Source: an uncultured Flavobacterium sp. (GTDB lineage: Bacteria; Bacteroidota; Bacteroidia; Flavobacteriales; Flavobacteriaceae). From it: DNA of 64,000 bases. Under the pieces are notes generated by a model. The model saw only the letters and a list, made by a program, of their open reading frames with translations. It was not told the origin of the DNA and made no database searches. This document shows, piece after piece, positions 24,847-63,456 of the stretch (the stretch's first letter is position 1; every line of letters starts with the position of its first letter). A program made the position numbers and the translations under genes. Location of the stretch: contig CAUPRE010000017.1 of assembly GCA_963513565.1 (NCBI GenBank), forward strand, positions 7,445 to 71,444, in the 5' to 3' direction.

Positions 24847-26247
24847 CTAAAAATTTGTCTCTTCAAATTGAGCAGTTTGCAAATAATCATTAACTATTGC
24901 CAAGGTTAACTTCCTGTCTTGTTCAGAAAAAATTAAGCGTAATTGTAAAAGTGAATTATCTTTTATTACCGGACTTATTTTTGTAGAATTTATTTTCAAT
25001 CTATCACCATTAATATCTGAAATTGACGTTCTCATCTGTGCGTACCAAATACTAACGTTTTTATCATTTTTCCAAGTATCCATATTACCAACTAGAACCG
25101 GAGAGTGAGTATTTACTATTACCTGTCTTAAAGGAATTTCTACTTCATTAAAATCAACACTAAGATCTTTTAATAATTCAGTCATTGCTCTAATTCTAAA
25201 AGGATGTATACCATTTTCTGGCTCTTCAAAACATAATAAACCAGTATGCTTTTCATCAAACTCTAAAATACACAAAGCTAAAATTCTTAAAGTCCCTTCT
25301 GACAAAACTCTGGAAGAAAACTCTTTTTTATCAACATCTTTAAGTTTAATTAAATACTGTTTGTTCTCATTGTCATCAACTACATCAACTTCTGTAAAGT
25401 TTGGCAAAAAACTATTAAGCTTTCTCGATATTTCTTTCAATGAATACTTATCATTTTGTTTAATTCTAAACAATGCAGCTGCTAAGTTTTTTCCACTAAC
25501 AGAAATTGTATCTTCTCCGTTGTTTTTACTTGTTGCCTGACGCAAATCTTCAGGGTTTAATTGCAAAAACTTCCAGCTCTTCATTTCTTCTTTAGCAGCC
25601 AAAACGTGTGGAAAATCGATTGTGTCAAAACTGCTCAAAACAGTTCTCGTTGCATTACTTAGAGGAAATCTTCTTTTATTACCTGTTGTACCATCTTGAG
25701 GAACTTGAATAATATCTAAATTATTTTCATTAACAGTTTCAATATATGGTATTCCTCTTTTACCTGTTCCAACTTTTGGCCTCCAATACTCTAAAGATTT
25801 CTTAGGTATGCTAATACTTACCCATATGTCATCTTGATGATTTAATTTTAATAGATTCTCTTTTGAAACGACTAAATCTTGAATCCCTGATACGTTTGTA
25901 ATTCTTTTAATTGACAACTCATATCTCAATCTTGTATATTTTAATTTAGCCTCATTACCCCAAGCATCTTTTATGTTTTTATTAACCAACATTTCTACAA
26001 CAAATTCCATTTCTGTTGCGTAGTTGTCATCACCATATTGCGTAAATAATTCGATAAACTCACCTCTTTGTTCACCAAAAGCCCTTTTTAAATTATCGGT
26101 TTCTGCTAATCTTGATAATAATGTTAATGCGTCAAATAAATTACTTTTACCAGAAGCATTAGCACCAGCAATCACAGTAAAAGGAGCAAATTCCATTTCA
26201 AAATTATGAAAGGACTTAAAGCCATTTATTTTTATATATGTTATCAT
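24847..26247 (-). CDS. AAA_15/AAA_21 (ABC/SMC-like) family ATPase, putative defence-system component
   Basis: Walker A GANASGKS (aa 28-35), signature-like LSEGT, Walker B LLCFEEPENGIHP and H-loop NTHSP. The N-terminus I.I.NFKSF is typical of OLD/AriA/GajA-type ATPases. Confidence 0.75.
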   Translation of the reverse strand: MITYIKINGFKSFHNFEMEFAPFTVIAGANASGKSNLFDALTLLSRLAETDNLKRAFGEQRGEFIELFTQYGDDNYATEMEFVVEMLVNKNIKDAWGNEAKLKYTRLRYELSIKRITNVSGIQDLVVSKENLLKLNHQDDIWVSISIPKKSLEYWRPKVGTGKRGIPYIETVNENNLDIIQVPQDGTTGNKRRFPLSNATRTVLSSFDTIDFPHVLAAKEEMKSWKFLQLNPEDLRQATSKNNGEDTISVSGKNLAAALFRIKQNDKYSLKEISRKLNSFLPNFTEVDVVDDNENKQYLIKLKDVDKKEFSSRVLSEGTLRILALCILEFDEKHTGLLCFEEPENGIHPFRIRAMTELLKDLSVDFNEVEIPLRQVIVNTHSPVLVGNMDTWKNDKNVSIWYAQMRTSISDINGDRLKINSTKISPVIKDNSLLQLRLIFSEQDRKLTLAIVNDYLQTAQFEETNF

Positions 26248-26313: not shown

Positions 26314-27291
26314 TTACTCCCTCGTTTTATCACTAGCTTTTCTGTCTTCATCATAGGAATCAACACGGTAATGTTCGTCGTCGCCTTCTAATATTTTCAG
26401 GTAACTGTTATAACGCGACCAAGCAATTTCATCTTTTTCTAAGGCGGCCTTTATAGCACAATGTGGCTCTTCTTTATGCAAACAATTGTTGAACTTACAC
26501 TGTTCTTTCAATCTAAAAAATTCAGGAAAATAATCGCTAATTTCTTGAGGCTCCATATCGACAATTCCAAAACCTTTGATCCCTGGTGTATCAATAATAC
26601 TAGCATTAAAAGACAAATCGTACATCTCTGCAAAAGTGGTGGTATGCTGTCCTTGCTTGCTTGCTACCGAAATAGTTTTCGTTTTCAAATCTAAGCTCGG
26701 CTCCAAAGCATTAACCAAAGTCGATTTACCTACACCTGAATGCCCCGAGAACATACTTGTGTTGCCTAACATTAATGCTTTCAAAGCGTCAACTCCTTTA
26801 CCTTCAGCAGCCGAAACGCGCAAACATTGATACCCAATTTCTTGATACACATGTTGCATGTACAACTGTTCGTCTAAAGTGACTTCATCTAAAGTATCAA
26901 TTTTGTTAAAAACTAAAATAGTCTCAATGCCATACGCCTCTGCAGTCACCAAAAAACGATCAATAAAATTAAAAGTCGTAGGAGGATTATTGACAGTAAT
27001 TAAAAGAAAAACACGATCAATATTGGCTGCAATAATGTGCATTTGATGCGACAAATTCACCGATTTTCGAACGATATAATTTTTTCGATCATGGATATGA
27101 TGAATCGTCCCAGTAATGGTATCCGAAGTTTCATCTTGTTCATAATCCACCATATCGCCAACTGCAATAGGATTGGTACTTTTAATGCCTTTCATTCGGA
27201 ACTTCCCTTTCATTCTGCACTCTATAAAATCACCTTGTTCGGATTTTACAGTATACCAACTTCCTGTAGATTTATATACGGTTCCTGTCAT
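26314..27291 (-). CDS. rsgA: ribosome small subunit-dependent GTPase A
   Basis: Circularly permuted GTPase motifs (NKIDT, then GHSGVGKSTLVNAL, then DTPG) and a C-terminal zinc knuckle CKFNNCLHKEEPHC. Confidence 0.9.
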   Translation of the reverse strand: MTGTVYKSTGSWYTVKSEQGDFIECRMKGKFRMKGIKSTNPIAVGDMVDYEQDETSDTITGTIHHIHDRKNYIVRKSVNLSHQMHIIAANIDRVFLLITVNNPPTTFNFIDRFLVTAEAYGIETILVFNKIDTLDEVTLDEQLYMQHVYQEIGYQCLRVSAAEGKGVDALKALMLGNTSMFSGHSGVGKSTLVNALEPSLDLKTKTISVASKQGQHTTTFAEMYDLSFNASIIDTPGIKGFGIVDMEPQEISDYFPEFFRLKEQCKFNNCLHKEEPHCAIKAALEKDEIAWSRYNSYLKILEGDDEHYRVDSYDEDRKASDKTRE

Positions 27292-27390: not shown

Positions 27391-27420
27391 AAAATCCCAA
27401 AACAAAGGTCTTGGGATTTT
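27391..27420 (-). terminator. intrinsic terminator at the end of the aromatic amino acid operon
   Basis: aaaatcccaaaac / gtcttgggatttt hairpin with flanking A/T runs, just downstream of the DAHP synthase stop (27458). Confidence 0.6.
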
Positions 27421-27457: not shown

Positions 27458-28540
27458 TTACGAATTCAATACTTTATCTTGTTTGTTGATACTTTCTTGG
27501 TGAATTGCTTTGAACATTTTTAAAACAAACTCTTCCGAAAGTCCTTTCTTTTCTCCTTCCAAAATCATTTTGCCTAAAATTTCATTCCAACGATTGTTTT
27601 GCAAAACCGCCACGTTTGCTTCTTTTTTCACCTGTCCAATTTCTACAGCCACTTTCATTCTTTTGCTCAAAAGCTCCAATAAATTAGCATCTAATACATC
27701 GATATTCGCTCTTAATTTACTCATTTTAGTCATAAACTCATCCGAAACATCGATTTGTTTTCTAACTCTCAAATCTTTGAAAATTTGTTTCAAAGCATCT
27801 GGCGTTACTTGTTGCGCAGCATCACTCCAAGCATTATCAGGGTCTGTGTGAGTTTCAATAATCATTCCGTCATAATTCAAATCCAAAGCTTCTTGCGTCA
27901 CTTCAAGAATCATATCACGATTTCCAGTAATGTGAGAAGGATCAATAATCAAAGGCAAATCTGGGAATTTGTTTTGCAATTCAATCGCAATTTGCCATTC
28001 TGGGATGTTTCTGTATTTTGTTTTTTCGTAAGTAGAAAAACCACGGTGAATCACCCCTAATTTTTCAATTCCGGCCATATGCAAACGCTCTACACCACCT
28101 AACCACAAAGCTAAATCTGGGTTCACTGGATTTTTAATCAAAACAATTTTGTCTGTCCCTTTCAAGGTATCTGCAATTTCTTGAACCGCAAACGGATTGG
28201 CCGTAGTACGTGCCCCAACCCATAATACATCAATATCATTTTCTAAAGCCAATTTACAGTGAGCAGCAGTAGCTACCTCGGTTCCCATTAACAAACCTGT
28301 TTCTGCTTTGGCTTTTTTCAACCATTTCAATCCTATTTCTCCAACGCCTTCAAATCCACCTGGACGCGTTCTTGGTTTCCAAATTCCAGCTCTAAACACA
28401 CTTACATCAGAATCTTTCAATTCGTGTGCAATTTTCAATACTTGCTCTTCTGTTTCGGCGCTACAAGGTCCTGCTATCACCAATGGATGCGTCAAATTGA
28501 ACGCTTCCAACCAATTTCTCATTTCTTTCTTGTTTTCCAT
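27458..28540 (-). CDS. bifunctional 3-deoxy-7-phosphoheptulonate synthase / chorismate mutase
   Basis: KDO8P/DAHP synthase type I-beta core (AGPCS.E, FRAG.WKPRT, DPSH) with a C-terminal chorismate mutase type II helix bundle (RANIDVLDANLLELLSKRMKVAVEIG). Confidence 0.88.
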   Translation of the reverse strand: MENKKEMRNWLEAFNLTHPLVIAGPCSAETEEQVLKIAHELKDSDVSVFRAGIWKPRTRPGGFEGVGEIGLKWLKKAKAETGLLMGTEVATAAHCKLALENDIDVLWVGARTTANPFAVQEIADTLKGTDKIVLIKNPVNPDLALWLGGVERLHMAGIEKLGVIHRGFSTYEKTKYRNIPEWQIAIELQNKFPDLPLIIDPSHITGNRDMILEVTQEALDLNYDGMIIETHTDPDNAWSDAAQQVTPDALKQIFKDLRVRKQIDVSDEFMTKMSKLRANIDVLDANLLELLSKRMKVAVEIGQVKKEANVAVLQNNRWNEILGKMILEGEKKGLSEEFVLKMFKAIHQESINKQDKVLNS

Positions 28541-28604: not shown

Positions 28605-29462
28605 CTATTTTTTGGTATTCATCCCATTCAAAATGGCTTTAATTTTATTCACACTCTGCATTTCATCATAAATAGCATCATATTCTTCACTTTTCAACAA
28701 GTCTTTAAACTGCGTCAAATTGGCAATGTATTCCTCCAAACTTTTCACTACGTGCTTTTTGTTTTGCTTAAAAATAGGCGTCCACATAGCAGGCGAACTT
28801 TTGGCTAAACGCACGGTGCTCTCAAAACCTGAGCCTGCCATATCAAAAATATCCTGTTCGTCTTTCTCTTTATTAATGACCGTTTTTCCTAACATAAACG
28901 AACTAATGTGCGACAAATGCGATACGTAAGCAATGTGTTTATCGTGCGACTTCGGGTCCATATAGCGAATGCGCATTCCTAACTCTTTGAACAATTCGAT
29001 GGCTTTTTCTTGCAACTTAAAAGTCGTTTTCTCCACCTCACAAATAATATTCGTTTTCCCTTGAAACAATCCTTTTATAGCCGCTGATGGTCCCGAAAAT
29101 TCCGTTCCAGCAATAGGATGCGTGGCAATATAATTTCTTCTTCTTGGATGATTAGCCACCGCTTCACAAATAGGCATTTTCGTAGAACCCACTTCAAAAA
29201 CAATAGTGTTTTCGCCAATATGGTCCAAAACTTCGGGCAACACTTGCAACGCCACATCCACAGGAACCGAAACAATAACATAATCCGCATTGGCCAAATC
29301 CTGCATCGTAGCGGCTTTCTCCACAACCCCAAGCGCCATCGCTTCTTGCAAATGGGCTTCATTTTTGTCCATTCCGTAAATAGTCGCTTCTGGGTGTAAA
29401 GTCTTTATATCCAACACCATCGAACCTCCAATCAAACCTATTCCTATTACGTGTATATTCAT
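28605..29462 (-). CDS. tyrA: prephenate dehydrogenase
   Basis: N-terminal GIGLIGGS Rossmann motif and HPIAGTE catalytic His motif. Operon context. Confidence 0.85.
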   Translation of the reverse strand: MNIHVIGIGLIGGSMVLDIKTLHPEATIYGMDKNEAHLQEAMALGVVEKAATMQDLANADYVIVSVPVDVALQVLPEVLDHIGENTIVFEVGSTKMPICEAVANHPRRRNYIATHPIAGTEFSGPSAAIKGLFQGKTNIICEVEKTTFKLQEKAIELFKELGMRIRYMDPKSHDKHIAYVSHLSHISSFMLGKTVINKEKDEQDIFDMAGSGFESTVRLAKSSPAMWTPIFKQNKKHVVKSLEEYIANLTQFKDLLKSEEYDAIYDEMQSVNKIKAILNGMNTKK

Positions 29463-29482
29463 TATTATTTTTATTATTAGCT

Positions 29483-29551
29483 AATCCTGCTATCCGCTAT
29501 ATCTATTGTGGCGAACCCCGCTACAATAGGATGCCGCTACTATCAGGGCTA
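29483..29551. repeat. family D element (reverse orientation)
   Basis: The reverse complement reads tagccctgatagtagcggcatcc-[tattgtagcggggttcgccacaata]-gatatagcggatagcagga. Same flank-hairpin-flank layout as 42039, 50796 and 55524. Confidence 0.75.
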
Positions 29552-29562
29552 GGTATTATCTG

Positions 29563-30780
29563 CTAAAAACGACGAATCGCTTCTTCAATTTTTTCTTCTT
29601 TTACACACAAAGCAAATCGGATGTACCCTTCGCCATTCGAACCAAAAATTGTTCCTGGTGTAATAAAGATGTATTTCTCATATAGTATCTTATCAATAAA
29701 ATCCTCCGCCGATGTGATTCCTGCTGGGAGTTTTGCCCAAACAAACAATCCCACACCTTCTTTGTACACCACACAACCTAATTTCTCAGCCAACTCTTCG
29801 GTTAAAATTCTGCGTTTTGCGTAAATCGCATTCATTTCGTCGAACCAAGAAGCATCACTCTGCAAAGCTGCAATAGCCCCTTTTTGAATGCCGTAAAACA
29901 TTCCGCTATCCATATTACTTTTTACTTTCAATACCGCATCAATACAGGCAGCATTTCCAGAAACCATTCCTACACGCCATCCTGCCATATTAAAGGTTTT
30001 GGACAACGAATTCAACTCCAACGCTACTTCTTTTGCTCCCTCCACTTGCAACAAACTCATTGGTTGATCATTCAAAACAAAACTATATGGATTATCATTG
30101 ACTAATAAAATGTTGTGTTTTTGTGCAAAAGCTACCAGTTTTTCAAACAAAGCCAAATTTCCTCTGGCTCCTGTAGGCATATGCGGATAACCAATCCACA
30201 TCAATTTTACTTTAGACAAATCCATTTTTTCCAAAGCCTCAAAATCAGGTTCCCAATTGGTGCTTTCTTTCAAGTCATAATACATTGGCACCGCACCTAC
30301 TAAATTAGTCACCGAAATATACGTCGGATACCCAGGATTTGGAATCAAAACGCCATCACCTTCATTCAAAAATGCTAACGAAATGTGCATAATTCCTTCT
30401 TTGGAACCCATCAAAGGCAAAATTTCAGTGGTGGTATTTAGGATCACTTGGTAATTACGCTCATAAAAATCAGCCATAGCTTGTCTTAATTCAGGCAAAC
30501 CTTGATAGCTTTGATACTGATGTGCATTTTCGTCTTGCATCGCTGCTGTCATTGCGGCAATCACAGCAGGAGCAGGTTTTAAATCAGGACTACCAATTCC
30601 CATATTGATTACAGGTTTTCCTTCGGCGGCCAATTGGCGTACTTCTCTCAACTTTGAGGAGAAGTAATATTCTTCAACTACATCAAGGCGTTTGGCAAGC
30701 CCCACCCCAACCCTCCCCAAAAGGGAGGGAGCCGAAGCTGATGCTTTTTCTGAATTACTGCTTTTATCTAAACTTTTCAA
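29563..30780 (-). CDS. pyridoxal phosphate-dependent aminotransferase (class I/II; aromatic/prephenate aminotransferase by context); start codon uncertain
   Basis: SLSKTFNMAGWRVG PLP-lysine motif and the EYYFS.KL N-terminal pattern. There is no in-frame ATG upstream of the conserved core. Candidate starts are the TTG at 30780 or a GTG/TTG inside the family B repeat (30699..30731). Confidence 0.85.
   Translation of the reverse strand: MKSLDKSSNSEKASASAPSLLGRVGVGLAKRLDVVEEYYFSSKLREVRQLAAEGKPVINMGIGSPDLKPAPAVIAAMTAAMQDENAHQYQSYQGLPELRQAMADFYERNYQVILNTTTEILPLMGSKEGIMHISLAFLNEGDGVLIPNPGYPTYISVTNLVGAVPMYYDLKESTNWEPDFEALEKMDLSKVKLMWIGYPHMPTGARGNLALFEKLVAFAQKHNILLVNDNPYSFVLNDQPMSLLQVEGAKEVALELNSLSKTFNMAGWRVGMVSGNAACIDAVLKVKSNMDSGMFYGIQKGAIAALQSDASWFDEMNAIYAKRRILTEELAEKLGCVVYKEGVGLFVWAKLPAGITSAEDFIDKILYEKYIFITPGTIFGSNGEGYIRFALCVKEEKIEEAIRRF
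30699..30731. repeat. family B GC-rich element (CTCCCTCCCTTTTGGGGAGGGTTGGGGTGGGGC) in the 5' end of the aminotransferase ORF
   Basis: Same element as 45201, 58141 and 59319. In the long ORF it is translated as APSLLGRVGVGL. Confidence 0.85.
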
Positions 30781-30829: not shown

Positions 30830-30854
30830 CCCCGCCTAGGCGGGTTAGGGGGCT
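30830..30854. repeat. family A variant (CCCCGCCTAGGCGGGTTAGGGGGCT) abutting the pheA stop
   Basis: The pheA stop TAG (30853..30855) overlaps the element by 2 nt at its edge. The element lies in the pheA-aminotransferase spacer. Confidence 0.7.
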
Positions 30855-31680
30855 AAGGTTTTGTATTTTTATATTCACCCAAAACTTTAAAATAATCCGC
30901 CATAATCGAAACTAATGCTTTCGCCTTGGCGTAATCTTCATACTTTTCAAAAGTCACATCTACAAAAAAAGAATATTTCCAAGGTGTTTCTATTTTTGGC
31001 AAGGATTGTATTTTGGTTAAATTCAGTTTACAATCGCTCATCACATTCAAAACAGCGGCTAAACTTCCGCGTTTATGGTCCAATTCAAACTTGATGGAGG
31101 CTCTATTGATTTCGTCTTCGGAAACAAAAGAATTCTCTTTTTTGAGGATTACAAATCGAGTCATATTGTTCTCGATGGTTTGAATCGAAGGCGCGATAAT
31201 CTCTAAATTATACATATCAGCAGCCGTTTCACTGGCGATTGCTGCAATTCCTTTGATTTGATTTTCGTGGATTCTGCGAGCGGTTTCTGCCGTATCTTTA
31301 TCTTCAACCAATTTAATGTTAGGGTATTTTTTCAAGAAGTCCATACATTGTAATAATGCCATCGGATGCGAATGTACTTCTTGTATATCCTCGATTTTTT
31401 GTCCAGGCAAAGCCATTAAATTTTGAATAATATCCAAATAATGTTCCCCTATAATGTGCAAATTATTCTTGTCGATTAGTGCATAATTTGGAATAATCGG
31501 TCCCGCAATGGAGTTCTCAATAGCCATTACCGCTTGGTCACTATCTCCCTTCAACAAGCTATCTACTAATTCTTCAAAAGACAAGCATTCATCTACTGCC
31601 ACATTTTGGTAGAAATAATCTTTAGCTACCTGATGGTGAAACGACCCCTTTATCCCCTGAATTGCAATTTTTGCTCTCAT
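30853..31680 (-). CDS. pheA: prephenate dehydratase
   Basis: AIENSIAGPI and TRFVIL motifs plus a C-terminal ACT domain. First gene of the aromatic operon. Confidence 0.9.
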   Translation of the reverse strand: MRAKIAIQGIKGSFHHQVAKDYFYQNVAVDECLSFEELVDSLLKGDSDQAVMAIENSIAGPIIPNYALIDKNNLHIIGEHYLDIIQNLMALPGQKIEDIQEVHSHPMALLQCMDFLKKYPNIKLVEDKDTAETARRIHENQIKGIAAIASETAADMYNLEIIAPSIQTIENNMTRFVILKKENSFVSEDEINRASIKFELDHKRGSLAAVLNVMSDCKLNLTKIQSLPKIETPWKYSFFVDVTFEKYEDYAKAKALVSIMADYFKVLGEYKNTKP

Positions 31681-31685
31681 ATATT

Positions 31686-31717
31686 CAAAAAAAAATCCTG
31701 ATTTTCATCAGGATTGT
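31686..31717 (-). terminator. attenuator terminator immediately upstream of the pheA ATG
   Basis: On the minus strand: AAUCCUGAU-GAAA-AUCAGGAUU followed by U9, ending 6 nt before the pheA start. Its 5' arm (ACAAUCCU) can alternatively pair with AGGAUUGU at the leader ORF stop. Confidence 0.7.
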
Positions 31718-31767
31718 ATTGTAGTTTTATTTGTTTTTTTGTCATTCAAATAACCATAGCACAATCC

Positions 31768-31824
31768 TTACTTCTCAAAGAAGAAATAAAAAGTATAGCT
31801 AAAGTAAAAACGGTTATTTGACAT
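31768..31824 (-). CDS. Phe/Tyr-rich leader peptide MSNNRFYFSYTFYFFFEK (18 aa)
   Basis: ATG at 31824, TAA at 31768..31770. 7 Phe + 3 Tyr in 18 codons. Located 50-140 nt upstream of pheA and followed by antiterminator/terminator alternatives. Too short for the ORF track. Confidence 0.6.
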   Translation of the reverse strand: MSNNRFYFSYTFYFFFEK

Positions 31825-32018
31825 TTTGTGTTCTAATTTTCAATAAATTCTTTGACAAAGATAAAAACTTATTTTGATGTCATCAAAAAAAACAGCATTA
31901 ATCCCTAACAAAAAAGGATTTCTTTGTGAAATTGATTTTCAATTAACAATCCTATAAAAAAGTTTACAGCAAAGCCTCTTTTTTTATTGATTATTCTTAT
32001 TGATTCGACACTAAAAAA

Positions 32019-32945
32019 CTATTTCTTCATCTTTGGAACCCTTGATGGCGTATCTTTTCCACTAATTATGGTTTGTGAACTGATGGCAATCGACTTGATA
32101 ATCTCCGTCATATTATCCATATCCAAAGTACTTATTTCGTCACTTAATTTATGATAATTCGGCTCAACATCCATTTTAGAAGTAGAAATAGTATGCGCTG
32201 GAACTCCTAAAGCAGCCAATCTTGCATTATCAGAACGATAAAATAATTGTTGCTCAGGATAAGGGTCTTGATAAAAGTTAAATCCAGAACCCACTAAATT
32301 CTTTTGCAAAATAGTTCCAAAATCAGAGCGCTCGAATCCTGTAATATAGGCTGAGTTCTTACCCCATTTACTATCCGTTCCAATCATTTCGATATTGAAC
32401 ATCGCTACCACTTCGTCTGCATTGATAGAATTTGAAAAAAAGGCTGAACCGTAGCCTCCTGTTTCTTCGCCCGTAAATGCTACAAAAATAAGTGTTCGTT
32501 CATTGTCGTTTTTCTTTTTAAAATATTCTGCCAGAGTAATTACCGCTGTAATTCCAGAAGCATCATCATTGGCACCATTAAAAATTTTGTCATCACCAGA
32601 CTCTTTCATTCCTAAATGATCGAAATGTCCAGAAAAAATGACATACTCGTTGGGGTTTGATTTTCCTGGAATAATTCCAATTACATTATTGGCTTTTTTC
32701 CCTTTAATCAAAAAATCTTGACGATAAGATTGTAATTCTTTATAGTAAGTCAATCCAATTCGTTTGAACTCTGCTTCTATAAAAGCCGATGCTTTCTCGA
32801 TTCCTGGTGTAAACATACCACGTCCTTCCATGGCATCCGAAGCCAATTCCGTTTCTATTCGAGTAACCTCGCTTTTTTGAATCCCACTCTGAGCTTGAGC
32901 CGTGAGTCCAAAAAGTACCATCAATCCTAAACTAATTTTTTTCAT
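32019..32945 (-). CDS. M28 family metallopeptidase (aminopeptidase)
   Basis: Signal peptide. Zn-ligand motifs SGHFDH, GANDDASG and TGEETGG typical of M28 peptidases. Confidence 0.8.
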   Translation of the reverse strand: MKKISLGLMVLFGLTAQAQSGIQKSEVTRIETELASDAMEGRGMFTPGIEKASAFIEAEFKRIGLTYYKELQSYRQDFLIKGKKANNVIGIIPGKSNPNEYVIFSGHFDHLGMKESGDDKIFNGANDDASGITAVITLAEYFKKKNDNERTLIFVAFTGEETGGYGSAFFSNSINADEVVAMFNIEMIGTDSKWGKNSAYITGFERSDFGTILQKNLVGSGFNFYQDPYPEQQLFYRSDNARLAALGVPAHTISTSKMDVEPNYHKLSDEISTLDMDNMTEIIKSIAISSQTIISGKDTPSRVPKMKK

Positions 32946-40432: not shown

Positions 40433-40522
40433 GGGCGTCTCCCAAGGGCCGGGCTATCCGTTCCCGCTTTTTTTCTTGATAAAAAAATCAAGAAAAAAGA
40501 GCTCCACTACTATCCCTCACGC
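40433..40522. repeat. family C variant (GGGCGTCT...GGGCTATCC...[ttcttgat..atcaagaa hairpin]...CTATCCCTCACGC)
   Basis: Shares both termini and the GGGCTATCC word with 5092..5205 and 62021..62135, but has a different internal hairpin. Confidence 0.65.
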
Positions 40523-40610
40523 GGGCATTGTGCAATACAACACCATTTTTGTTTCAATGAAACGGTTCCGTTTTTATAATTCACAACGGAATGAATTTTC
40601 CTCTTACATC

Positions 40611-41914: not shown

Positions 41915-42038
41915 ACTTTTTCTTGTCGCTAAGGCGCTAGAGCGCAAAGCTTTTTTTAATTTATATTTTCTGACATTCCTCTAGTTTGAGGAAATACATT
42001 GCTTTTTTTGTTTCTAAATAAGCCTATTGCTGGCTATT

Positions 42039-42109
42039 TAGCCCCGATAGCAGTGTAAATCCTTGTGTGCCGGGGTTCGGCATACAAGATTGTAACGGAT
42101 AGCGGGAAC
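42039..42109. repeat. family D element between the SAM riboswitch and its regulated ORF
   Basis: tagccccgatagcagtgtaaatcc-[ttgtgtgccggggttcggcatacaa]-gattgtaacggatagcgggaac. Confidence 0.8.
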
Positions 42110-42175
42110 GTTGATGCCAAAAAAGCGGCAATGATGCGCTCATTCAATTATTTAAAAATGTATCGGGAAAGGGGT

Positions 42176-42200: not shown

Positions 42201-42203
42201 GTT

Positions 42204-42307
42204 GTTATCTATCCGCGCTATGCTTGGTAGAATGTAGCACCTTCTTTAAAAAAGTAAAGGGTTGCTAAGGTTTCATCGGGTCTTTTCCCTCCGCCTTTCG
42301 TGATAAC
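42204..42307 (-). promoter_or_regulatory. SAM-I (S-box) riboswitch aptamer upstream of the Hcy-MT/metH/metF genes
   Basis: The minus strand reads GUUAUC-acgaaAGGCGGAGGGAaaAGACCCGAUGAAaCCuuAGCAACCc...gaAGGUGCUAcAUUCua...GAUAAC, matching the SAM-I conserved core and P1 helix. Confidence 0.8.
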
Positions 42308-42383
42308 TTTCAATAAAAATAGGAACGGTGCAAAGTAACGACATAACGCTAACAATTGCAAGTGTTTTTTTAGAAGTTTAAAA

Positions 42384-50527: not shown

Positions 50528-50795
50528 TTCATTTTAAAATCTATTACCCTATCGGTTTTGTAGATTACTTCGCAAAAGTACTACTATTTTCTAAATCACA
50601 AAATTTATTTTAAAAAATTAGCGTTGTTTTTACATCAAAAAATCAAGTCCATTAAGAAATTAAAAGATTTATTGTTAAAGTCATAGGCGTAACATCTATT
50701 CTTTTTATGAATAGCAATGAAGAATGAAGTCTTCTCTCATTTTCATAAAGTAACATAAAGAAGGAAAAGTGAATTAAAAAAGCAGACGTCTTTAA

Positions 50796-50873
50796 TAGCC
50801 CCGGGAGTAGCGGCATCCTTTTTTGTCTCGTTTTTTTTTTACGAGACAAAAAAGATATAGCGAATCACGGGAG
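50796..50873. repeat. family D element in the cysH/tauE divergent spacer
   Basis: tagccccgggagtagcggcatcc-[ttttttgtctcg-t10-acgagacaaaaaa]-gatatagcgaatcacgggag. Confidence 0.75.
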
Positions 50874-50954
50874 GAGACGTGATGAAAAAAAAATAATTTG
50901 TGCTTCAATAAAATTTAATTCTACTTAATCGATAGGATTATTATAAATTTATTT

Positions 50955-55395: not shown

Positions 55396-55523
55396 TTACT
55401 TTTAATGTCAAAAACCAAATTTACACTTTTAACAAATCAAAACTCAATTATTCTATCGTCTGAATTCGATAAATAGTATTTCTACCATTTTGGATGATAA
55501 CAAAAATGCAAAATCTTTCCTTT

Positions 55524-55601
55524 TAGCCCCGATGGAAGGGAAAATCCTTTTTTGAGTCGATCTTTTTTCGACTCAAAAAAGATTGGAATGACAGCGGGAA
55601 C
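55524..55601. repeat. family D element
   Basis: tagccccgatggaagggaaaatcc-[ttttttgagtcga-tctttt-ttcgactcaaaaaa]-gattggaatgacagcgggaac. Confidence 0.8.
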
Positions 55602-55718
55602 TTTCCCTCCAAAAAAGCCAAATCTTTCTGCTCCAAATTAATCGTTTTACTATAATATCCCTTTTATAACCACAAAACCCACAGCCGAAAGCGTGGGTTT
55701 AAAATTGTTATAAAACTA

Positions 55719-63148: not shown

Positions 63149-63221
63149 ATCTTTGTTGTTGTTGATTTGTATTTGGAATATTAGAAAGAAAAACTAGTGG
63201 AGACTAGAGGTATTTTGTTGC

Positions 63222-63322
63222 GTTATCTTTTTCGCTAGGCGAATAGAATGTAGCACCTTCTTCGATTTCCGAAGGGTTGCTAAGGCTTCATTGGGTCTAA
63301 TCCCTCCGCCTTTCTTTATAAC
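63222..63322 (-). promoter_or_regulatory. SAM-I (S-box) riboswitch aptamer upstream of metX-thrA
   Basis: The minus strand reads GUUAU-aaagaaAGGCGGAGGGAuuAGACCCAAUGAAGCCuuAGCAACCcuucgg...gaAGGUGCUAcAUUCua...AGAUAAC. A weak hairpin (CUAGU-n4-ACUAG + U5) follows at about 63186..63208. Confidence 0.8.
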
Positions 63323-63456
63323 ATTTCAATACGTTTGTGAACTTAAAGCTGCAAAGTAACTATTTATTTTTTTAACACGCAAATTTTTAAAACAACAACC
63401 AAGTTACAAATCATTTGCAAACTTGGTTATTGTTAGCTATTAGAATCTAGTATTCT

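Follow-up and report, generated by a model that had tools for sequence, protein, structure and literature searches.

Known attenuators and the Flavobacterium pheA leader

In Escherichia coli, pheA is preceded by pheL, a short Phe-rich open reading frame (ORF) whose transcript can form alternative 1:2, 2:3, and 3:4 hairpins and which is followed by an intrinsic terminator before pheA. Other enterobacterial leaders, those of thr (Thr and Ile) and ilvGMEDA (Ile, Leu, and Val), mix the codons of several end products. Here we describe the leader of the aromatic amino acid operon in a 64,000-nucleotide (nt) stretch of contig CAUPRE010000017.1 from an uncultured Flavobacterium sp. (the window, whose positions are used throughout; all leader and operon features lie on its minus strand). 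This leader is very probably a ribosome-mediated, leader-peptide transcription attenuator controlling an operon of pheA, an aminotransferase, tyrA, and an aroG-chorismate mutase fusion. The E. coli leader works by the same logic and regulates the same enzyme but senses Phe only and serves a single gene, whereas the window leader appears to sense Phe and Tyr (with Trp in one clade) on behalf of both branches and the common pathway. The window leader also starts without a Shine-Dalgarno context, unlike that of E. coli, and its match to the E. coli-type Phe_leader (RF01859) reached 23.6 bits (E = 0.36), below the gathering score of 55, so that it resembles this family in function with no homology detected. 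Like the enterobacterial multivalent attenuators it mixes codons, for other amino acids and in another phylum, its own multivalency being read from codon content alone.

Vitreschak and colleagues are said to have predicted amino acid attenuators in Bacteroidetes/Chlorobi in a 2004 article in FEMS Microbiol Lett. Naville & Gautheret (2010) did not cover the Bacteroidetes. With Bacteroid-trp (RF01692), a tryptophan leader-peptide RNA of Bacteroidetes, the mechanism class had already been predicted for the phylum (Weinberg et al. 2010, PMC2864571). Bacteroid-trp shares phylum and mechanism class with the window leader but belongs to the trp operon, carries Trp codons, and has another sequence. 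Its model did not match 31000-32500 up to E = 10, nor any part of the window at the gathering score. Rfam holds no family for the window's leader element.

In F. psychrophilum, Guerin et al. (2021, ISME Commun 1:33, PMC9723704) listed THC0290_N_0195 as a pheA-aspC3 leader-peptide attenuation element (Table S7, SI D9) and gave its leader peptide, its mapped start site, and "putative terminator/anti-terminator hairpins" (SI D9). There the leader is expressed separately from pheA, with read-through under specific conditions, and operon expression is maximal in minimal nutrient media. The published 170-nt sequence aligns over the whole window leader, with GGATTGT, TATGGTTATTT, ATACAATCC, and GGATTTTTTTTT as invariant blocks. 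Both elements lie upstream of pheA and consist of an aromatic-rich ORF followed by GGGATTGT, TATGGTTATTTGA, ATACAATCC, the terminator, and T9. The F. psychrophilum peptide has 27 codons (MNTNNTFYSNNSFYFYWNIGRDCYMVI) with its stop in GGUUAUUUGA, whereas the ORF in the window has 18 and stops just before GGAUUGU. The lower terminator stem differs between the two by compensatory changes. The F. psychrophilum operon is annotated as pheA-aspC3, with a DAHP synthase gene behind it that has its own promoter, while the four genes in the window have no obvious internal terminator. The window leader is an ortholog of the element described in 2021, and the idea of attenuation at this locus is not new.

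A preliminary description of this DNA, made from the sequence alone, had called ribosome-mediated attenuation little documented experimentally in Bacteroidota. This holds for mutational or biochemical proof of a leader-peptide attenuator in the phylum, of which we found none in the literature searched (which is not proof of absence), but it understates the record in that the ortholog has transcriptome support (PMC9723704). To the published prediction we add a three-state model with coordinates, the pattern of codon substitution, two stop-codon classes, and an architecture that persists at 47-68% PheA identity. These give the conserved 170-nt leader of the Flavobacterium aromatic amino acid operon a firm functional annotation; knowledge is otherwise unchanged, since pheA attenuation in Flavobacterium had already been proposed with transcriptome support. 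Together with the genetic tools of F. johnsoniae, the conserved leader would offer a convenient first system in which to prove ribosome-mediated attenuation in a phylum that initiates without Shine-Dalgarno pairing.

An aromatic-rich leader ORF conserved throughout Flavobacterium

The leader ORF opens with an ATG at 31824-31822 and runs through 18 sense codons (MSNNRFYFSYTFYFFFEK) to a TAA at 31770-31768, which are the limits given in the preliminary description. Aromatic codons make up 9/18, all within codons 6-16; they are 6 Phe and 3 Tyr, so the 7 Phe and 3 Tyr of the preliminary description overcounted Phe by one. This density of 9 Phe/Tyr in 11 residues compares with 6 in the runner-up among the 639 ATG-initiated mini-ORFs of 12-45 codons in the window, and 9 was reached in 0/100 windows simulated with a first-order Markov model. 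By these measures the leader ORF stands out statistically from the rest of the window and is not what DNA with 36% G+C yields by chance.

For comparison we used the pheA loci of 80 Flavobacterium species representatives, in which PheA is 86-99% identical; 68 leaders were aligned, and pairing was counted over 67 distinct sequences. The Phe/Tyr-rich mini-ORF that the preliminary description proposed to look for upstream of pheA orthologs is present in 80/80 species, with the core M-x-x-N-R-F-Y-F-S-[NY]-x-[FY]-Y-F-F-[FW]. In the codon table, the aromatic positions show only TTT/TTC, TAT/TAC, F to Y or Y to F, N to Y or Y to N, and TTT to TGG (F to W) changes, the last of which puts Trp at codon 16 in one clade, and leader positions 2, 3, 11, 17, and 18 vary freely. 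As far as sequence comparison can tell, such a pattern marks selection that acts on codon identity and not on the peptide, and it suggests that the leader ORF is translated.

The stop codon falls into two classes. In the short class (46/80 loci) a TAA lies just before GGATTGT and closes an ORF of 18-19 codons. In the long class (32/80 loci) the ORF continues through GGATTGTGCTATGGTTATT to a TGA or TAA after 26 codons, the stop falling in GGTTATTTGA within the P0 3'-arm block described below. F. psychrophilum and a more distant locus, L081, carry the long form, so that the short 18-codon form in the window is probably derived. The 22-nt block GGATTGTGCTATGGTTATTTGA does not vary, whether left untranslated (18-19 codons) or translated (26 codons), and is therefore constrained as RNA.

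In about 15/80 species extra DNA separates the leader terminator from the conserved start of PheA, with the leader unchanged. These are L005, L006, L008-L012, L015, L016, L029, and L032, with roughly 85-110 nt inserted after the terminator, and L020, L022, L044, and L067. In four of the species a GGAGAGGG(T/G)TGGGGTGAGG-like repeat is part of the insert, which extends the reading frame of PheA at the N terminus to give 294-aa proteins.

Three mutually exclusive folds

The preliminary description had proposed folding the leader, and this gave a stable minimum-energy fold (-37.8 kcal/mol versus -21.7 +/- 3.4 for dinucleotide shuffles, z = -4.7) together with alternative helices. The terminator, as DNA AATCCTGAT-GAAA-ATCAGGATT at 31715-31694, has a 9-base pair (bp) stem and a GAAA loop. 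Nine consecutive T follow at 31695-31687, the first two of which belong to the stem, and GAATAT (31686-31681) separates the T-run from the pheA ATG at 31680. Both the reading and a terminator scan agree here with the strong terminator, with a U9 ending 6 nt before the pheA ATG, that had been noted earlier. The terminator is paired in 100% of cells across the distinct sequences, and two of its pairs show compensatory changes.

The antiterminator joins the end of the leader ORF to this terminator. AGGATTGT lies at 31768-31761, its first A being the final base of the leader stop codon, and ACAATCCT lies at 31717-31710. In RNA, the 8-mer AGGAUUGU is complementary to ACAAUCCU within the terminator 5' arm, so the complementarity between the stop-codon segment and that arm claimed in the preliminary description is borne out by reading. 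The duplex of these two segments has an energy of -11.7 kcal/mol against -5.5 kcal/mol for shuffles (z = -3.4), a value that 1% of shuffles match. The antiterminator shares 6 nt with the terminator 5' arm, and the two are mutually exclusive. The bare 8-bp helix first envisaged gives way to a composite element, in which the helix of AGGAUUGU(G) with (U)ACAAUCCU encloses a nested hairpin formed by UUAUUUG and CAAAUAA. The latter is present twice, in codons 2-4 and in the spacer, and therefore the same UUAUUUG can pair either way. The nested hairpin helix is 98% paired, and one of its pairs is changed on both sides (G-C to A-U, in 3 sequences).

The minimum-energy fold contains a third structure that the preliminary description missed, an anti-antiterminator (1:2) of the classical kind, whose long and imperfect helix pairs codons 2-5 and 9-15 with AUGGUUAUUUGA and region 2. 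Its P0 helix is about 90% paired, and the near-invariance of the Asn-Arg codons AAC CGU is explained by their position in the P0 5' arm. The 1:2 helix is 85% paired across species, with many switches between G-U and A-U. As isolated elements, the terminator, antiterminator, and 1:2 structure have energies of -11.1, -14.4, and -23.6 kcal/mol. In 68/68 leaders the antiterminator exceeds the terminator in stability, and in 67/68 it is in turn exceeded by the 1:2 structure. This comparison of states relies on isolated-element energies plus a co-transcriptional intermediate, since pairing behind the ribosome and near-equal energies blur the folding of the full leader.

GGAUUGU is invariant in 68/68 leaders, and UAUGGUUAUUU is likewise invariant in the alignment. 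ACAAUCC of region 3 is invariant, and the last position of the region co-varies with both of its partners. Among the combinations seen at this sole variable position of the antiterminator (given in the order of regions 2, 3, and 4), (A,U,A) accounts for 40 leaders, (G,U,A) for 21, (G,C,G) for 6, and (A,U,G) for 1; all of them fit both helices, with 0 incompatible combinations. These numbers come from a direct count in each sequence, because a 1-nt alignment gap (GG-ATTGT versus GGGATTGT) distorts the column-based count of antiterminator pairs. RNAalifold on the 68-sequence alignment returned the terminator only, and the alternative helices were supplied by hand.

Position of the ribosome

We modeled the ribosome as masking the A-site codon, the next 12 nt (an assumed footprint), and all RNA 5' of that codon, and folded the emerged RNA to the end of region 3. 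With the footprint size taken as such, the antiterminator is predicted to form for A-site codons up to 14, to weaken at codon 15, and to be gone from codon 16 through the stop, a range in which the terminator alone can form. The last Phe codon (16) is thus too near region 2 for antitermination. The preliminary description had a ribosome at the stop codon masking AGGAUUGU, which the model reproduces, and a ribosome stalled on Phe/Tyr codons leaving it free, which in the model extends only as far as codon 14 or so. The 18-codon form has its stop just before region 2, and the 26-codon form, in which the ribosome would translate through region 2, has it inside the nested hairpin.

Distant relatives

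The contigs of PheA representatives 47-68% identical to the PheA of the window retain the architecture in other sequences. An aromatic-rich mini-ORF and a terminator lie just upstream of pheA in 7/8 distinct distant loci, with peptides such as MNTHHFFYFNSFCTFYFWKKRDCYCVMMKK, MINNRTYYNNSFYYFFSEKDGIVV, MRAHFNQLFFYFFFFSAKEGNLVV, and MLNKVYFWNYFYFAFSSETGEF and with quite unlike terminator sequences. Complementarity between a segment near the stop and the locus's own terminator 5' arm was examined in 8 loci (the window and seven distant ones) and was found in 6/8, five of these six being distant, with z between -1.9 and -4.0; GAAGGACC and GGUCCU form one such pair of segments, and GGGGAGUUCU and AGAAGCCCC another.

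The sole distant exception is L092 (CP059218.1, a complete genome of 567,897 bp), in which PheA is 48% identical and the order pheA-aminotransferase-tyrA is kept, and in which neither a leader ORF nor a terminator was found upstream of pheA. The genome appears to be that of a reduced endosymbiont, and the absence of the leader is consistent with lost regulation.

Promoter and transcripts

A candidate promoter of the Bacteroidetes type precedes the leader. TTTG stands at the place of the -33 element in most of the 68 aligned leaders, and the motif TTTG / TAnnTTTG is the one quoted for Bacteroidetes in PMC9723704. In F. psychrophilum the homologous box drives a SigA start mapped to the 6th nt after the box (PMC9723704, supplementary file 3). 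In a related isolate, an RNA-seq contig starts at the 5th nt after the -7 box (L066:2327), 25 nt before the leader AUG, and ends at 2494, just past the U-tract, with pheA on a separate contig. The start of this contig lies directly behind GGTATCAACGCAGAGTACGGG, which we take to be a template-switch oligo marking the 5' end of the RNA. Metatranscriptomes of strains about 95% identical gave, in one run, a depth of 38 over the leader versus 22 over pheA, and in two other runs single contigs continuous from the leader into pheA.

Farther upstream, a hairpin AGGAUU...AAUCCU with U6 (about 31953-31908, minus strand) lies downstream of an M28 peptidase gene (stop at 32019) and is probably its terminator. 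A second copy of AGGATTGT within this hairpin, some 185 nt upstream of the first (about 31953-31946), was considered as an extra pairing partner and rejected as a coincidence, being kept in two close relatives only.

Attenuation model and alternative explanations

The features that a leader-peptide attenuator needs at the level of sequence are found together here: an aromatic-rich ORF, a terminator, an antiterminator exclusive with it, a 1:2 helix that includes the regulatory codons, a fitting ribosome geometry (with the footprint assumed), and cognate genes. By their Pfam assignments the controlled genes make Phe and Tyr, the amino acids that would be sensed. We expect transcription to start about 26 nt upstream of the 18-codon ORF and the transcript to choose among three exclusive folds, the anti-antiterminator, the antiterminator, and the terminator. 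With charged tRNA-Phe and tRNA-Tyr plentiful, the ribosome would reach the stop codon and cover AGGAUUGU, the terminator would form, and transcription would stop. With either charged tRNA scarce, the ribosome would stall on an aromatic codon (up to about codon 14) and melt the 1:2 structure, leaving region 2 free to capture region 3 before the terminator 3' arm is made, and RNA polymerase would enter pheA. In a leader that is not translated, the 1:2 structure would keep region 2, giving termination by default. The ribosome-mediated reading proposed in the preliminary description is thus well supported, with its sequence-level elements in place, kept in 80/80 species, and recurring as an architecture in distant relatives.

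Opinion is evenly divided for us on a further idea, that the leader is a truly multivalent aromatic sensor in which a stall at Phe or Tyr (or at Trp in the clade with TGG at codon 16) opens the operon for the common pathway and both branches, and in which relocation of the stop may tune basal read-through.

Several observations weigh against attenuation as set out here. Equilibrium folds of the full leader with a masked ribosome leave the terminator and antiterminator near-degenerate, the terminator often being favored; the termination decision must therefore be kinetic and co-transcriptional, as it is in classical attenuators, and the model depends on a presumed kinetic order of folding. Both arms of the antiterminator core are invariant in the genus, so that its support consists of conservation and one three-way position, with covariation scarce, although such invariance is expected if region 3 must pair with two partners. 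For this organism, translation of the leader has indirect support from the substitutions at aromatic codons, and termination at the U-tract and a response of read-through to the supply of Phe and Tyr are predictions. The metatranscriptome contigs are suggestive, weak evidence that may include DNA. Among distant loci, the antiterminator of L088 is weak, and a measure of how far the terminator arm is sequestered upstream was no better in the diverse loci than in shuffles (not significant).

Chance is one alternative, in which the ORF and its complementarity arose in T-rich intergenic DNA beside an ordinary terminator, such as one belonging to the upstream gene, and have no regulatory role. In a genome with 36% G+C, A/U pairings and Phe codons are indeed common, and the shuffle control in distant loci was not significant, but no simulated window yields such an ORF, and the ORF and every structural block are kept in 80/80 species. 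A conserved promoter also separates the leader from the upstream gene, which appears to own a hairpin and U-run, and the operon would otherwise be silenced by a terminator that lies 6 nt before pheA and has no promoter behind it. This explanation, to which we give almost no credence, is effectively refuted by the comparative data. A different possibility is that the hairpin mainly controls translation of pheA, with the leader ORF modulating start occlusion and mRNA stability instead of termination. In its favor, the pheA AUG follows the end of the stem by 14 nt and that of the U-tract by 6 nt, an organism without Shine-Dalgarno pairing needs an unstructured start, and metatranscriptome contigs run unbroken across leader and pheA. 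Against this, a 9-bp G+C-containing stem with 7-9 U is a canonical intrinsic terminator whose U-tract is invariant, and the leader and pheA have separate expression profiles in F. psychrophilum. Moreover, the insertions of 85-110 nt before the pheA start in some of the species remove any start-site occlusion and leave the leader unchanged, and we consider translational control very improbable.

A third possibility is a trans-acting factor, either an RNA-binding protein like TRAP or PyrR or, in the manner of T-boxes, an uncharged tRNA, that would bind GGAUUGUGCUAUGGUUAUUUGA to switch between the same RNA structures and leave the ORF incidental or auxiliary. Pairing alone seems to call for less strict invariance than the 22-nt block shows, and covariation in the antiterminator core is scarce. 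The block joins two or three alternative helices, however, which is enough to explain its invariance, and the aromatic codons substitute in a translation-type pattern. In distant relatives aromatic-rich ORFs recur while the block is replaced by other sequences, and no match to a T-box or other Rfam family was found at the leader. We regard a trans-acting factor as very improbable and retain ribosome-mediated attenuation as the best explanation of the locus.

The operon and other features of the window

The features of the leader and the operon are collected in Table 1. The four enzymes that had been named earlier for the downstream operon are those found by Pfam matches. The ACT match in PheA is sub-threshold (20.6 bits versus a cut-off of 27), and the protein is 96-99% identical to Flavobacterium proteins (F. 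succinicans, F. polysaccharolyticum, and Flavobacterium sp. RSSB_23).

Table 1. Positions in the window of the pheA leader, its promoter, and the operon.
Feature	Position	Strand	Basis
-33 element TTTG, putative Bacteroidetes sigma-A type promoter	31884..31887	-	reading; 20 nt upstream of -7 box
-7 box TATCTTTG, consensus TAnnTTTG	31856..31863	-	kept as TAnnTT[TC]G in aligned leaders
Predicted transcription start, 5-6 nt past -7 box, about 26 nt before leader AUG	31850..31851	-	homology
Leader ORF, 18 codons + TAA, peptide MSNNRFYFSYTFYFFFEK	31768..31824	-	direct reading and conservation
P0 5' arm UCAAAUAACCGU, codons 2-5, partner 31757-31746	31810..31821	-	minimum-energy fold
Region 1, 5' arm of 1:2 helix, codons 9-15 including UUU UAU UUC UU	31781..31800	-	minimum-energy fold
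Region 2, 3' arm of 1:2 helix GAGAAGUAAGGAUUGUGCU, holds antiterminator core AGGAUUGU (31768-31761)	31758..31776	-	folds
P0 3' arm AUGGUUAUUUGA; its UUAUUUG (31753-31747) alternatively pairs with spacer CAAAUAA	31746..31757	-	folds
Spacer CAAAUAA, 3' arm of hairpin nested in antiterminator	31727..31733	-	folds
Region 3 ACAAUCCU, partner of AGGAUUGU, overlaps terminator 5' arm	31710..31717	-	reading and folds
Intrinsic terminator stem-loop AAUCCUGAU-GAAA-AUCAGGAUU, -11.1 kcal/mol	31694..31715	-	terminator scan and folding
U-tract 3' of stem	31687..31693	-	sequence reading; invariant in alignment
pheA, prephenate dehydratase with ACT domain	30853..31680	-	Pfam PF00800, 1.7e-57
Class I/II aminotransferase (aspC/tyrB-like)	29563..30780	-	Pfam PF00155, 4e-65
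Prephenate dehydrogenase (tyrA)	28605..29462	-	Pfam PDH_N and PDH_C
DAHP synthase fused to chorismate mutase	27458..28540	-	Pfam DAHP_synth_1 and CM_2
Terminator closing the four-gene operon	27395..27416	-	stem 9, loop 4, T-run, about 40 nt past last gene

A Flavo-1 RNA motif (RF01705, 64.8 bits) at 29479-29554, on the operon strand, takes up the 100 nt that separate the aminotransferase gene from the prephenate dehydrogenase gene. It resembles an inserted repeat, since the same gap measures 12-47 nt in distant relatives. Four further Flavo-1 copies lie elsewhere in the window, at 40443-40531 (minus strand), 42036-42113 (plus), 50793-50878 (plus), and 55521-55605 (plus). Two SAM (S-box) riboswitch aptamers pass the gathering threshold, at 42202-42309 and 63220-63324, both on the minus strand (72.7 and 80.6 bits). 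Downstream of rsgA (26314-27291), an AAA_21/AAA_15 ATPase gene at 24847-26247 (minus strand), whose family names include "putative AbiEii toxin", may be defense-related.

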